DNA of 58,383 nucleotides from Bacillales bacterium UBA3620. GTDB taxonomy: Bacteria; Bacillota_I; Bacilli_A; RF39; UBA660. Positions within the stretch are counted from its first letter, which is position 1; every line of letters starts with the position of its first letter. The translations under genes were made by a program, and so were the position numbers. The DNA lies in the NCBI GenBank assembly GCA_002375205.1, contig DFLL01000040.1, forward strand, positions 1 to 58,383, in the 5' to 3' direction. The notes under the pieces are model-generated. The model worked only from the letters and a program-made list of their open reading frames with translations, did not search any database and had not been told where the DNA came from. Positions 18,636-42,438 of the stretch are shown here, piece by piece.

Positions 18636-18654
18636 AAAAATAACATTTTAAATG

Positions 18655-18969
18655 TTATTTTATATCATCAATATATTTCTTTATTTTTTTCGTATCCTGC
18701 CCAAGTATTATTTTTAACTGATCCTCATATTCAACTACACCTTTTGCGCCTAATTTTAATATTCCTTCTTTATTAGCTTTTGTTACATCCTTAAGTGTAA
18801 CCTTAAATCTTGACATTTCAGCCTCAGTATCAAGAATATTTTCTTTTCCTCCTAGCAATTCCACTAATTTATTTAATTCTATTTTTACATCTTTCTTACT
18901 CATTTTAATTATAGCTAGCGCAATAAAAACAAGCACTAAAATTATTATTATATACTGATATAATTCCAT
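18655..18969 (-). CDS. membrane-anchored PTS EIIB-like domain protein lacking the phospho-Cys
   Basis: An N-terminal TM segment is followed by LGGKENILD...MSRFKVTLKD...GAKGVV, which resembles the glucose-family EIIB fold. The CxTR cysteine position reads E-M-S-R. Confidence 0.55.
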   Translation of the reverse strand: MELYQYIIIILVLVFIALAIIKMSKKDVKIELNKLVELLGGKENILDTEAEMSRFKVTLKDVTKANKEGILKLGAKGVVEYEDQLKIILGQDTKKIKKYIDDIK

Positions 18970-38704: not shown

Positions 38705-39352
38705 ATGAAGTATATTAAAAAAATATTATTGTCTATTAGAGAAATTCTTCTTGTTATGATTATTCAATATATATTACTCTTTGGATGTATTCTTTTATTT
38801 GGCTTGGATAAATCGATTATTCTTGGTACGATTATTTTATCTATATTTGAACTTATCTATATATTTATTAAGTTAAAGAATATTAAACTTTCTTTTAAAC
38901 ATAACTATTTTCCTTATATGCTACTAGGAATATCAATATCTATTATTTATAATATGATTATCTTTAAACTAGGTATTAAATTTGATATAACTAGTATTCC
39001 ATTAATATTAGATATTATCGCTTCTGGTATTATTGGTCCAATATTTGAAGAAATTCTATTTAGATATAGTCTTATTAATAAACTAGCTAAATTTAATAAT
39101 AATACTTTATGTATAATAATATCTTCCTTTATATTTGCTATATGCCATAATGGAATTACTACCATAGTATATGCATTTATTATTGGTCTATTTAATTCTT
39201 ATTATTATATTAAAAAGAAAGATATACTAGTACCTATTATTATTCATATATCCGCGAATATCGTCTCTTCATTCTTATTTAATTTTAATCCTTATATATT
39301 AATACTTGGTATTATTTTATTTGGAATTGGTATCTCTACTAGTAGAAAATAA
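38705..39352 (+). CDS. CPBP-family intramembrane metalloprotease (CAAX protease/Abi PF02517 type)
   Basis: It has the EEILFRY motif, later FAICHN and HISAN histidines, and is polytopic. Confidence 0.8.
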   Translation: MKYIKKILLSIREILLVMIIQYILLFGCILLFGLDKSIILGTIILSIFELIYIFIKLKNIKLSFKHNYFPYMLLGISISIIYNMIIFKLGIKFDITSIPLILDIIASGIIGPIFEEILFRYSLINKLAKFNNNTLCIIISSFIFAICHNGITTIVYAFIIGLFNSYYYIKKKDILVPIIIHISANIVSSFLFNFNPYILILGIILFGIGISTSRK

Positions 39353-39367
39353 ATATTTAAATATATT

Positions 39368-39400
39368 GGTCTATCAACAGTATTGTTGATAGACCTTTTT
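39368..39400 (+). terminator. intrinsic terminator after the CPBP protease gene
   Basis: A perfect 12-bp stem (GGTCTATCAACA / TGTTGATAGACC) with a 4-nt loop, followed by TTTTT. Confidence 0.85.
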
Positions 39401-39503
39401 AGTTAACTTTATTATTTTGTATTGACTCTCTATTTATTTTATGATAAAGTTTTTGTGCTAAGAATTTGAAAGAAAAAAATTAATTTTTTGGAGGTATTTT
39501 GGT

Positions 39504-40367
39504 ATGAATGAATTACAAGTTATTAGTAATCAAGAAATTGAGAAAATGATTTTTGAAGTAAGAGGTAAGTTTGTTATGTTAGATAGTGATATAGCAAATC
39601 TTTATCATGTAGAAACAAAGAGAGTAAATGAAGCTGTTAAAAATAATTTAACAAAGTTCCCTGAGCGTTATTCCTTTAAACTTACTGATGAAGAATCAAA
39701 AAATCTTTTGGTCGAAAATTTCGACCAAAAAAAAGAAACTCGAGGAGGCAGATATAAAAATCCAAGAGTGTTTACAGAAGAAGGTGCTTTAATGCTCAGT
39801 ACTGTACTTAAAAGTAAATAAGCTATTAATACTAGTATTGCTATTACTGATGCTTTTGTTGCTATGAAGAAGTATATCTCTTCTAATCTAATAGAACAAA
39901 GATTTATTAATAATATGGTATTAGAACATGATAATGATATTAAACTACTTAAAGAATCTTTTTCAAAATTTGATAGTATGAGTAATGAGATATTTTATGA
40001 AGGACAGATATATGATGCTTATTCATTATTATTGGATATAATAAATAGTTCTAAAGAAAGTATTATAATTATCGATAATTTTGCTAATAAGAAATTATTT
40101 GATTTACTATCTAAAACTAATAAGGAAATAACTGTTTATAGTAAAAATATCGATGAAGATCTAATTAATAAATATAAGAAGCAATATAATAACGTTACTT
40201 TAATACATAATGATAGTTACCATGATAGATTTATTATTATTGATAATAAAACATTATATCACTGTGGATCTTCATTTAAAGACTTGGGTACTAAATGTTT
40301 TTGTATTAGTAAAATTGAAAATCAAGAATTAATTAGAGATATGTTATCTATTATAAAAAGCAAATAA
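39504..40367 (+). pseudogene. ORF6N-family paralog copy 1, interrupted by an in-frame TAA at 39819-39821
   Basis: The two track ORFs (39504-39821 and 39864-40367) are collinear and in frame with the intact copies 2 and 3. The sequence reads ...VLKSK*AINTSIAITDAFVAMKKY... Confidence 0.7.
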
Positions 40368-40385
40368 TAATTGGAGGTATTTGGT

Positions 40386-41255
40386 ATGAATGAGTTACAA
40401 GTAATTGATAATATTAAAATTGAAGATATGATTTATGAGATAAGAGGTAAGTTTGTTATGTTAGATAGTGATATAGCAAACCTTTATCACGTTGAAACAA
40501 AAAGAGTAAATGAGGCTGTAAAAAATAACCCCAAAAAATTTCCAGAACAGTATTCTTTTATATTATCTAGTGATGAATATAAATCTCTAAGGTCGAAAAT
40601 TTCGACCTTAGAAGTAAAAAATACTGGTAAAGGGCATTATAGAAAATATTTACCAAGGGTTTTTACTGAAGAAGGATGTTTAATGCTTGGAACTGTTCTG
40701 AAAAGTGATGTTGCAGTGAATACCACATTACTTGTAATTGAAGCTTTTGTCGCTATGAAGAAGTATATCTCTTCTAATCTAATAGAACAAAGATTTATTA
40801 ATAATATGGTATTAGAACACAATGAACGAATCAGATTATTGGAAGATAATTTTAATAAAAAATCTTTTAGTAATGAAATATTCTATGAAGGACAAATATA
40901 TGATGCTTATTCATTATTATTGGATATAATAAATAGTTCTAAAGAAAGTATTATAATTATCGATAATTTTGCTAATAAGAAATTATTTGATTTACTATCT
41001 AAAACTAATAAGAAAGTAACAGTATATAGTAAAAATATTGATGAAGAACTAATTAATAAATATATGAAACAGTATAATAACGTTACTTTAATACATAATG
41101 ATAGTTACCATGATAGATTTATTATTATTGATAATAAAACATTATATCACTGTGGATCTTCATTTAAAGACTTGGGTACTAAATGTTTTTGTATTAGTAA
41201 GATAGAAAATCAAGAACTAATTAGAGATATGTTATCTATTATAAAAAGCAAATAA
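40386..41255 (+). CDS. ORF6N-domain protein (KilA-N-related DNA-binding N-terminus) with a C-terminal HDRFIIID...GSSFKDLG module, copy 2
   Basis: ORF6N-like motifs are present: VMLDSDIANLY...KRVNEAVKNN..FP and LPRVFTEEG. The ATG at 40386 follows GGAGG. Confidence 0.75.
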   Translation: MNELQVIDNIKIEDMIYEIRGKFVMLDSDIANLYHVETKRVNEAVKNNPKKFPEQYSFILSSDEYKSLRSKISTLEVKNTGKGHYRKYLPRVFTEEGCLMLGTVLKSDVAVNTTLLVIEAFVAMKKYISSNLIEQRFINNMVLEHNERIRLLEDNFNKKSFSNEIFYEGQIYDAYSLLLDIINSSKESIIIIDNFANKKLFDLLSKTNKKVTVYSKNIDEELINKYMKQYNNVTLIHNDSYHDRFIIIDNKTLYHCGSSFKDLGTKCFCISKIENQELIRDMLSIIKSK

Positions 41256-41273
41256 TAATTGGAGGTATTTGGT

Positions 41274-42149
41274 ATGAATGAGTTACAGGTAATTGACAAC
41301 ATTAAAATTGAAGATATGATTTATGAGGTAAGAGGGAAGCAAGTTATGCTAGATTCTGATTTGGCAAAAATTTATCATTGTAAGAATGGCACAAAAGAGA
41401 TTAACCAAGCAGTTAAAAGAAATATAAATAGATTCCCTGAAGAATTTTGCTTTCAACTCTCAGAAGACGAATACTCACTTTTGAAGTCACAATTTGTGAC
41501 TTCAAAAAATAAAGGTCGCGGTGGAGTTAGAAAACTACCATATGTTTTTACCGAACATGGAGTGATTATGCTTTCTAGTGTAATAAAAAGTGATGTTGCT
41601 GCTAAAACTAATGTAGCAATAATTAATGCTTTTATAAAAATGAAAAAGTATGTTTCTTCTAATTTATTGGAACAAAGGTTTATTAACAATATGGTATTAG
41701 AACATGATAATGATATTAAACTACTTAAAGAATCTTTTTCAAAATTTGATAGTATGAGTAATGAGATATTTTATGAAGGACAAATATATGATGCTTATTC
41801 ATTATTATTAGATATATTAAATAGTTCTAAAGAAAGTATTATAATTATCGATAATTTTGCTAATAAAAAGTTATTTGATTTACTATCTAAAACTAATAAG
41901 GAAGTAACTGTTTATAGTAAAAATATTGATGAAGAACTAATTAATAAATATATGAAACAGTATAATAACGTTACTTTAATACATAATGATAGTTACCATG
42001 ATAGATTTATTATTATCGATAAAAAAGTATTATATCACTGTGGATCATCATTTAAGGATCTAGGTACTAAATGCTTTTGTATTAGTAAGATAGAAAATCA
42101 AGAACTAATTAGAGATATGTTATGTAGTATTAGTCTAAATAACAGGTAA
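41274..42149 (+). CDS. ORF6N-domain protein with a C-terminal HDRFIIID...GSSFKDLG module, copy 3
   Basis: It matches the canonical ORF6N pattern: VMLDSDLAKIY, INQAVKRNINRFPEEFCFQLSEDEY, LKSQFVTS, LPYVFTEHGVIMLSSV. Confidence 0.8.
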   Translation: MNELQVIDNIKIEDMIYEVRGKQVMLDSDLAKIYHCKNGTKEINQAVKRNINRFPEEFCFQLSEDEYSLLKSQFVTSKNKGRGGVRKLPYVFTEHGVIMLSSVIKSDVAAKTNVAIINAFIKMKKYVSSNLLEQRFINNMVLEHDNDIKLLKESFSKFDSMSNEIFYEGQIYDAYSLLLDILNSSKESIIIIDNFANKKLFDLLSKTNKEVTVYSKNIDEELINKYMKQYNNVTLIHNDSYHDRFIIIDKKVLYHCGSSFKDLGTKCFCISKIENQELIRDMLCSISLNNR

Positions 42150-42195
42150 TTTAATAAAGTAATATTAAAGAAGCACTGCTAGTAACAGTGGTCTT

Positions 42196-42438
42196 TTATT
42201 CTTTAAAAAAGTCATCTATTTTCTTATTTAATATTAGAGATAATTTATATACTAATGTTAGTGAACAGTTTTTTCTACTGTCACCTGGTGACTCTAATCT
42301 TTTTAAATAATCAGGACTAACATCTAGAATTTCTGCTAAATCCATTAATTTAAGTCCTTGTTCTTTTCGATATTTTTTAATATTTTTACATATTATTTCT
42401 CTATAATTATGATTAAATCCATCTATTTCTTTTATCAT
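42196..42438 (-). CDS. XRE-family helix-turn-helix transcriptional regulator, 80 aa
   Basis: It has a Cro/C1-type HTH (IKKYRKEQGLKLMDLAEILDVSPDYLKRLE) and lies 3 nt downstream of the preceding ORF. Confidence 0.8.
   Translation of the reverse strand: MIKEIDGFNHNYREIICKNIKKYRKEQGLKLMDLAEILDVSPDYLKRLESPGDSRKNCSLTLVYKLSLILNKKIDDFFKE

Follow-up and report, generated by a model that had tools for sequence, protein, structure and literature searches.

Why should three neighbouring genes for putative DNA-binding proteins each carry a long perfect palindrome at the same internal position, with a different sequence in each? The question is raised by a 58,383-nucleotide (nt) contig of Bacillales bacterium UBA3620 (DFLL01000040.1; the whole of this stretch is called the window below), in which three tandem genes encode proteins with an ORF6N domain. 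A preliminary description of the sequence had suggested that the symmetry is preserved as DNA or RNA structure, and offered three roles: an autoregulatory operator, a cruciform or recombination site, or a messenger RNA (mRNA) hairpin. Here we report that the palindrome is conserved at the DNA level among homologous genes, that it is kept independently of reading frame, and that its bases covary with residues of a predicted recognition helix encoded in the same gene. From these sequence comparisons we propose, with a probability of about 0.7, that each palindrome is the cognate duplex DNA site of the same gene's ORF6N dimer.

The three ORF6N/PDC-S05 paralogs are co-oriented on the plus strand with 18-nt gaps, at 39504..40367 (copy 1), 40386..41255 (copy 2, 289 amino acids (aa)) and 41274..42149 (copy 3, 291 aa), and all match Pfam PF10543 above its gathering score of 27.8 bits (E = 1.3e-27, 96.3 bits; E = 5.5e-28, 97.5 bits; and E = 5.4e-32, 110.4 bits, respectively). 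About 205 nt into each gene lies a perfect palindrome with a total span of 25-29 base pairs (bp). In copy 1 it is TTTTGGTCGAAA-A-TTTCGACCAAAA at 39706-39730, with 12-bp arms (12+1+12) as originally reported, and it is read in a shifted frame as LLVENFDQK. The copy 2 palindrome, TCTAAGGTCGAAA-A-TTTCGACCTTAGA (reading SLRSKISTLE), had been recognised but measured too short: its arms are 13 bp (13+1+13) and it occupies 40586-40612, rather than having 11-bp arms at 40588-40610. The copy 3 palindrome, TTTTGAAGTCACAA-T-TTGTGACTTCAAAA (reading LLKSQFVTSK), does span 41479-41507, but with 14-bp arms around a single T (14+1+14) and not 13-bp arms around ATT, because the A and T beside the centre pair too. 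In copies 2 and 3, the dyad centre is base 1 of the I/F codon in (K/R)S(Q/K)(I/F)(S/V)T. Copies 1 and 2 have a common core, GGTCGAAAATTTCGACC, which copy 1 reads out of frame, as had been noticed, with an offset of one base; the two copies share this inner core and the same helix, and differ in outer arms and reading frame. Between the three copies, 4-6 of the 13 half-site positions differ. The window (26% GC) contains four perfect palindromes whose arms reach 11 bp or more, three of them in the ORF6N copies, against a chance expectation of 0.27 per window in Markov-1 simulations. As had been judged by eye, the palindromes use codons that are rare in the window's long open reading frames (TCG 5.1% of Ser, ACC 7.4% of Thr, GTG 7.2% of Val, TTG 8.6% of Leu and AGG 12.8% of Arg). 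The fourth perfect palindrome, AAAATAACATTT-T-AAATGTTATTTT at 18637-18661, has a sequence unlike the ORF6N type.

The same symmetry is found in homologs elsewhere. In a set of 80 loci on genome contigs, drawn from metagenome-assembled genomes of gut and rumen Bacilli or 'Tenericutes', termite Treponema and Bacteroidia, the longest perfect hairpin of the domain-coding stretch lay at most 3 nt from the homologous codon in 82% of 109 ORF6N copies, and the median stem was 12 bp. Among ORF6N genes on viral contigs, 34 of 38 had at least 10 of the 13 stem pairs in Watson-Crick form. In a codon control of the kind that the preliminary description had proposed, each of 107 distinct genes was recoded 500 times with synonymous codons drawn according to the usage of the family itself. 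The mean perfect stem at the homologous codon was 10.3 bp observed versus 3.2 bp resampled, and stems of at least 10 bp were present in 58% of genes versus 0.022% of controls; 13 of 13 pairs were intact in 48 of the 107 genes. The arms change together, with the combinations TCA..TGA, TCG..CGA, TCC..GGA, TTT..AAA, TTC..GAA, AGG..CCT, AAG..CTT and CGG..CCG all seen. An explanation from the peptide alone, in which the palindrome is a by-product of a conserved motif and codon usage, is rejected by the difference between 3.2-bp and 10.3-bp stems. Fixed codon positions 1 and 2 of L-R-S-Q-I-V-T-S are indeed partly self-complementary (S/T, Q/V), but the resampled controls miss the observation by three orders of magnitude and the same DNA is kept in another frame and in non-coding DNA, so that the probability of this explanation is close to nil. 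Codon resampling and homolog symmetry thus agree in indicating that selection acts on the nucleic acid beyond the peptide, as the preliminary description had supposed.

Reading frame is not what is conserved. A subfamily of more than 20 homologs reads the core GGTCAAAA-N-TTTTGACC one base off, as FLVKNFDQK, and copy 1 (LLVENFDQK) is a member of it. The frame difference of copy 1 is therefore real, but it is a conserved alternative reading and not a recent accident or a sign of decay. Viral contigs gave 0 matches to the shifted-frame pattern. No variant was found inside the copy 1 or copy 3 palindromes in four ruminant metagenomes that contain close variants of the locus. In-frame duplications of the element were present in three loci (L028, L078 and L044). 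In addition, proteins of 400-440 aa with two tandem ORF6N domains were observed (L033, L047, L054, L061 and L076; upstream copy in frame), and in these each domain-coding segment bears its own, different palindrome.

Every alignment column was compared with every variable stem position, with palindrome-encoded residues set aside and bases given for the left arm, top strand. Residue 49 was the best predictor of position 3 (mutual information relative to entropy, MI/H, 0.91; next column 0.61), residues 42 (MI/H 0.71) and 45 (0.57) were the best predictors of position 4, and residue 41 was the best predictor of position 7. Residues 41, 42, 45 and 49 lie on one face of a predicted helix comprising residues 40-49. 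For the outer bases, residue 86 best predicted position 10 (MI/H 0.87), and loop residues 82-90 covaried with positions 8-10; physical linkage may contribute to this covariation. Across a pooled set of 144 genes from genome contigs, independent viral contigs and metagenome contigs, R49 occurred with C at position 3 in 77/78 genes and N49 with A in 63/64. At position 4, Q45 occurred with A (91/98), E45 with G (24/26), R45 with C (13/13), K45 with C (2/2) and L45 with T (2/2). Textbook side-chain/base contacts include Asn/Gln with adenine, Arg/Lys with guanine, Glu with cytosine and hydrophobic residues with thymine, and the observed pairs are compatible with these. In copies 1 and 2 of the window, the predicted recognition helix is TKRVNEAVKNN (39615..39647, plus strand, from sequence, models and covariation; 40497..40529, plus strand, identical and from sequence); its E45 and N49 predict G4 and A3, and the core GTCGAAA is observed. 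In copy 3, the helix TKEINQAVKRN (residues 40-50; 41391..41423, plus strand, from both structural models and covariation) has Q45 and R49, which predict A4 and C3, and the core GTCACAA is observed. An extra paralog in a sister genome (L001) also obeys the rule.

In the usual frame, positions 3 and 4 also set motif residues, and the correlation could therefore be protein-internal. As a test of this confound, metagenome contigs were searched for shifted-frame palindromes with C at position 3. Six such ORF6N genes were found (FLVANCDQK or FLVTNCDQK); all six have R49, and position 4 is G with E45 in five and A with Q45 in one. Protein-internal coevolution as the cause of the helix/base correlation is ruled out by these shifted-frame genes. 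On a tree built from 78 domain columns outside the helix and palindrome region, residue 49 switched 12 times, in 12/12 cases with the predicted base change, and 24 of 29 switches at residue 45 obeyed the rule. The rule predicted position 4 in 130/139 genes (94%), compared with 104/144 (72%) for the nearest relative. The co-variation of site bases with recognition-helix residues is what an operator would show, and because the helix predicts the bases in both frames, the operator is the role that we favour among the three originally offered.

The predicted structure fits this role. An AlphaFold2 model of copy 3 (mean predicted local distance difference test score, pLDDT, 79; 45-sequence alignment) comprises an alpha/beta domain at the N terminus, predicted with confidence and including helices 27-33 and 40-49, then a long helix (107-159) and a second alpha/beta domain (164-290), with helix 40-49 present in the full-length and domain-only models alike. 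These parts correspond to a winged-helix-like ORF6N domain, a coiled coil and a predicted phospholipase D (PLD)-fold domain with the motif HDRFIIID...GSS. The palindrome encodes residues 69-78 (LLKSQFVTSK), in the sole low-confidence stretch of the domain, where pLDDT is <50 at residues 76-84 (77-83 in the domain-only model). Directly 3' of it, 41508..41543 on the plus strand encode a basic Gly-rich loop, NKGRGGVRKLPY (residues 79-90). Foldseek matched the whole chain to TrmBL2/TrmB, which are dimeric archaeal DNA-binding proteins (E = 5e-7), and the C-terminal domain to NucT (6ehi; E = 1e-6, TMt 0.55) and Zucchini (4ggj; E = 5e-6); for the ORF6N domain by itself the best match was the winged-helix-like Dachshund/Ski fold (TM ~0.55, probability 0.99-1.0). 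The catalytic HxK(x)4D motif is not present as such: the protein has H-D-R-F-I-I-I-D, with Arg replacing Lys, and D243, R244 and D249 are invariant and H242 nearly so among 45 homologs. A sequence search found no homolog in the PDB.

Based on these findings, we propose a plausible mechanism. The protein, with its winged-helix-like domain, long coiled coil and PLD-fold domain, would be a dimer, each subunit putting helix 40-49 into one half-site, about one DNA turn apart. Contacts to stem positions 7, 4 and 3 would come from residues 41, 42, 45 and 49, and the basic loop encoded 3' of the palindrome would possibly read the outer bases. Because identical subunits read both half-sites, a change of specificity would hit both arms, yielding a pattern that looks compensatory. 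The geometry is that of a dimeric repressor: the palindrome is odd-centred, and the helix-linked positions 3-7 on each side of the dyad place the half-site centres ~9-11 bp apart. The site appears to be written into a stretch that codes for a structurally permissive loop, and the signature peptide L-R/K-S-Q/K-I/F-V-T-S would therefore be largely the translation of a DNA site; the alternative frame would carry the same site as FLVKNFDQK, or as LLVENFDQK in copy 1. The three paralogs of the window would then present three different half-sites on a near-identical effector domain, and reader and site, sharing one ~120-nt segment, would move together when paralogs recombine. We infer that the ORF6N protein physically binds the palindrome, and we would guess, as the most likely outcome, that a roadblock ~205 nt inside each gene brings about negative autoregulation.

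Could the palindromes instead act as folded RNA or single-stranded DNA? Among 1339 stem pairs from 103 genes, 1257 (94%) were Watson-Crick, 20 were G.U, 35 A.C and 27 other mismatches. Since G.U pairs are no commoner than other mismatches, a hairpin in the sense-strand RNA is disfavoured, and the mRNA-hairpin role put forward earlier is rejected on these counts; a search of 39300-42300 with Rfam 15 found no covariance-model match up to E = 10. Of the stem positions, 1-7 and 10-12 show 92-99% symmetry and 8-9 show 83-86%, with a fall to 56%, 39% and 31% at positions 14-16, beyond position 13. The bases AA (1-2), GTC (5-7) and TTG (10-12) are kept even in non-coding copies. In the sequence comparisons, this profile of two tight patches with a sharp edge resembles the footprint of a protein more than the effect of stem thermodynamics.

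A broader version of the structural idea, in which a hairpin or cruciform of RNA or single-stranded DNA works without the ORF6N protein, as a pause site, antisense terminator, mRNA stability element or replication-linked hairpin, draws on the perfect stems with compensated changes, a classic signature of structure. Read antisense, the palindrome of copy 1 (39704-39732) precedes TTTTTTGATT and scores as intrinsic-terminator-like, and in a pattern scan that of copy 2 likewise looks like a terminator on the minus strand. The sense strand has an A-run after the AT-rich stem, and the elements are therefore not sense terminators; only copies 1 and 2 on the minus strand fit the scan. An RNA contig (40372-40601, 230 nt, 0 differences) spans the beginning of copy 2 and stops 2 nt beyond its dyad, an endpoint that is not interpretable at a depth of 2.5. 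A structural role is also favoured by a dispersed intergenic hairpin family with the same core as ORF6N, CAGTTGGTCGCAAnTTGCGACCAACTG, of which 49 copies were found among the fetched loci (L087-L160; metagenome contigs mostly Ga0123355/Ga0209755, mostly termite-gut, with several copies per contig). These have perfect stems of 13-27 bp whose outer parts are variable yet complementary, flanked by A-runs and T-runs; they lie mostly 3-40 nt past gene ends, between 10 convergent versus 1 divergent gene pairs, and no ORF6N gene was found near them in the fetched loci. A protein-independent hairpin nonetheless leaves the prediction of bases 3, 4 and 7 by helix residues, in both frames and over many switches, unexplained, and it does not accord with the intolerance of sense-strand G.U pairs, the empty Rfam search, or the A-run beside AT-rich stems. 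Symmetry that is highest at positions 10-12 and lower at 8-9 is also the reverse of what stem stability would lead one to expect. We consider this explanation improbable for the ORF6N genes.

The element is not confined to intact ORF6N genes. It also occurs in stop-ridden non-coding DNA beside an ORF6N gene (L011, L020, L043, L017 and L109), where arrays of 2-4 different family-type palindromes lie 50-320 nt 5' of ORF6N genes (L020 1186-1476; L011 1177-1472; L043 1330-1479; L017 35-154; L109 5590-5720); in some related loci there are sites ~50 nt 5' of the start codon. Some arrays resemble relics of coding sequence (NLRSQIATSS*TKGGG), and L011 and L020 have different perfect palindromes at an orthologous position. 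In the non-coding copies, position 3 agrees with residue 49 of the neighbouring gene in 16/18. The idea that the upstream arrays are matching operators was rejected, given this agreement at position 3 together with inconsistent bases at position 4. Genes of the Bro-N family (PF02498) bear the same palindrome, TTGGTCACAAnTTGTGACCAA, encoding ...EGSQLVTNCDQLK...DGKFY (L155:365-1228, plus strand; L129:5244-6092, minus strand; also L082, L139, L124 and L157).

Perfect palindromes in such stop-ridden relics would also be expected of a self-perpetuating quasi-palindrome, in which intramolecular template switching during replication copies one arm to the other and the sequence drifts without function. 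This process would account for one-step double changes and for the perfection of the stems (13/13 pairs in 48/107 genes), to which template switching may indeed add. It leaves unexplained the coupling to helix residues and the conservation of GTC at 5-7, TTG at 10-12 and AA at 1-2 in the non-coding copies, and it is at odds with a fixed position across Bacilli, Treponema, Bacteroidia and viral contigs despite the cost in rare codons. As the source of the palindromes it is very unlikely.

The paralogs themselves are diversified at the site. None of 26 same-locus paralog pairs has an identical half-site, and same-locus half-sites differ by a mean of 4.0/13 positions versus 3.5 for random pairs. 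Between true tandem paralogs, C-terminal domain identity is 84-99% for five of the six pairs. In the window, the C-terminal ~600 nt are near-identical across the three genes (the copy 2 C-terminal domain is 93% identical to that of copy 3) and the ORF6N part is diversified, the most divergent stretch being the palindrome and its 3' flank. From these alignments, the genes appear to be diversified reader-plus-site modules on a homogenised effector domain. Palindromes can be recombinogenic, and the mosaic structure of the three paralogs, together with many chimeric joints in metagenomes, would suit a site for recombination or cassette exchange as the driver of the array's mosaic make-up. A few of these joints do adjoin the copy 1 palindrome (40547 to 39699/39706). 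The breakpoints point elsewhere: in a three-way alignment, identity switches fall at column ~395-400, where the ORF6N domain ends, and inside the coiled-coil region, not at the dyads, and the joints that recur in metagenomes (39619/40499 to 41415) map within or close to the segment coding for the helix. Where contigs end beside a palindrome, an assembly artefact is the likely cause, and solitary ORF6N genes bear the palindrome too. The recombination-site role offered in the preliminary description thus finds no support, and we rate it as highly improbable. The sister genome L001 (682-2740; copy 3 region 99% identical) has a different paralog complement, which lacks the window's copy 2 and includes a further paralog (ALKSKFSTSK) as well as a chimeric fragment in which two motifs of the palindrome type occur (LKSKILTSK, SRSQIAAL).

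Several observations weigh against the palindrome being an operator-like site of its own protein. First, the sites do not overlap or adjoin a regulated promoter; they lie ~205 nt inside the genes. The promoter region of the gene row (39353-39503) contains no family palindrome, and classical promoter occlusion is therefore inapplicable there. Second, near-perfect symmetry over 12-13 consecutive positions exceeds that of most operators. Third, the code has exceptions, such as a C at position 4 paired with Q45 in the presence of T42, and position 4 of the upstream arrays often mismatches the helix of the neighbouring gene. Fourth, the helix-coding segment is only 60-110 nt from the palindrome, and reader and site could therefore move as one recombining block; truly independent switches may be fewer than those counted on the tree. 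Fifth, judged from sequence, the covariation would fit equally a dimer bound to linear duplex DNA and monomers bound one to each arm of an extruded cruciform or hairpin. Finally, the paired variable outer stems of the dispersed family and its terminator-like sites at gene ends imply that hairpin formation matters there.

Sites embedded in coding sequence have precedents. The gene O of phage lambda contains the binding sites of its own product, the ori-lambda iterons, in the part that codes for a tolerant linker; these are four dyad-symmetric iterons in the origin of one replicon, read by the N-terminal domain of a dimer. The ORF6N genes resemble this arrangement in that the sites of a DNA-binding protein would lie within its own coding sequence. 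They differ from it in that the feature is family-wide at a fixed codon, is usually a single perfect palindrome and occurs in two frames, and in that the site co-diversifies with its reader and nothing indicates a replication role. Other embedded sites are parS inside parB/spo0J, the purR operator O2, lacO2 in lacZ and galOI in galE. These too are cis sites in coding sequence, sometimes the binder's own, and serve autoregulation or loading; they are single species-specific cases with imperfect symmetry, and we know of none that shapes a family signature motif or forms co-varying reader/site pairs. The window's own parB has no parS match inside it. What sets the ORF6N case apart from known intragenic sites is that it is family-wide, at a fixed codon, frame-independent and co-diversifying with its reader.

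In architecture, TrmB and TrmBL2 (PDB 5bpi, 5bqt and 3qph) have a similar layout, in which a domain of winged-helix type at the N terminus is followed by a long dimerising helix and a PLD-like fold at the C terminus. The sequences are not similar, however, and the N-terminal domain of the window protein is ORF6N, with the Dachshund/Ski homology domain (DHD) fold as best match; whole-chain TM-scores against TrmB reach only ~0.3, as the domains are oriented differently. We know of no TrmB gene that embeds its site. Terminators, repetitive extragenic palindromic (REP) elements and attC sites share with the ORF6N palindromes perfect stems whose arms change together, and the dispersed relative acts like terminator or REP hairpins. 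The ORF6N stems are distinguished from these by the lack of G.U tolerance, conserved inner bases, a sharp edge at position 13 and the coupling of stem bases to a protein helix. We found no published intragenic palindrome for ORF6N or Bro-N, as far as titles and abstracts disclose.

Full-length copy 3 also matches the PADLOC model of the candidate single-gene defence family PDC-S05 (PDLC04869; E = 1.1e-92, residues 4-286 of 291), and like members of that family it belongs to a row of tandem, fast-changing paralogs in a variable locus. PDC-S05 differs as a point of reference in being a candidate class without a known mechanism, whose assayed representative had a RhuM domain. According to a preprint, this representative protected E. 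coli against T7, T5 and T4, with plating of T7 and T5 down ~1000-fold. Apart from this preprint, the literature on PDC-S05 consists of surveys, and the internal palindrome is not mentioned in it. The match raises a further explanation, in which the palindrome is a target address: ORF6N domains of the defence type would recognise palindromes in phage ORF6N or Bro-N genes, and the host copy would be a by-product or serve self-control. Besides the defence match and the protection seen with one representative, this idea gains from the occurrence of the palindrome type in 34/38 viral-contig ORF6N genes and in Bro-N genes, and from tandem paralogs that pair different specificities with a homogenised PLD-fold domain. 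On the other hand, proteins of this architecture have no known target, cleavage or defence phenotype, the motif in the PLD-fold domain is HxR and not HxK, and the RhuM-domain representative may differ from the window protein. Self-targeting would need an unexplained immunity, and the palindrome is also found in phage-borne and other ORF6N genes without a known defensive role. We therefore regard a target address as improbable.

Other features of the locus are as follows. Copy 1 is split by an in-frame TAA (39819-39821) into 39504-39821, containing the ORF6N domain, and 39864-40367, the C-terminal part. In 4/4 independent ruminant metagenomes and in the sister genome L001, position 39819 is G (T>G, GAA for TAA), and copy 1 is therefore not a decaying gene; the split is strain-specific or an assembly error. 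Promoter-like hexamers (TTGACT-17-TAAAGT with TG; 39422..39450, plus strand; a consensus match only) lie 5' of the gene row, and a terminator-like hairpin (42174..42190, plus strand) lies 3' of copy 3. Near-consensus sigma-70-type hexamers are also seen in the first 50 nt of copy 3 (TTGACA-16-TATGAT, 11/12, 41293-41320) and of copy 2 (TTGATA-16-TATGAT, 40405-40432); such matches are not in excess in the region, with 29 found versus 27 expected. The RNA data comprise two short contigs, not reads, at depth 2-3, and the 230-nt contig, whose metatranscriptome derives from the sample that also gave the best DNA match, indicates at most that copy 2 is transcribed.

The findings can be extended to a wider, speculative model, which we regard as unlikely in its full form. 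In it, ORF6N and Bro-N genes would be reader/site cassettes with a residue-to-base code (49: N/R = A/C; 45: Q/E/R,K/L = A/G/C/T) and a palindrome ~60-110 nt 3' of the helix segment in every gene. Tandem PDC-S05 arrays would then be a repertoire of sensors on a constant PLD-fold effector, aimed at the palindromes of phage ORF6N and Bro-N genes, with the self copy giving autoregulation or immunity.

If each palindrome is indeed the site of its own ORF6N dimer, the best-conserved 'protein motif' of a large Pfam family, and apparently of Bro-N as well, would be mostly a translated DNA site, which would change how such motifs, the codon usage near them and their synonymous conservation are read. 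The family would offer dozens of natural reader/site pairs with an apparently simple rule; the recognition code could be tested directly, and orthogonal DNA-binding parts might be drawn from these pairs. It would also provide a first handle on the mechanism of the widespread candidate defence family PDC-S05, whose paralogs differ in reader and site and share an effector. By sharing ~120 nt, a regulator and its site may stay joined through horizontal transfer and recombination.

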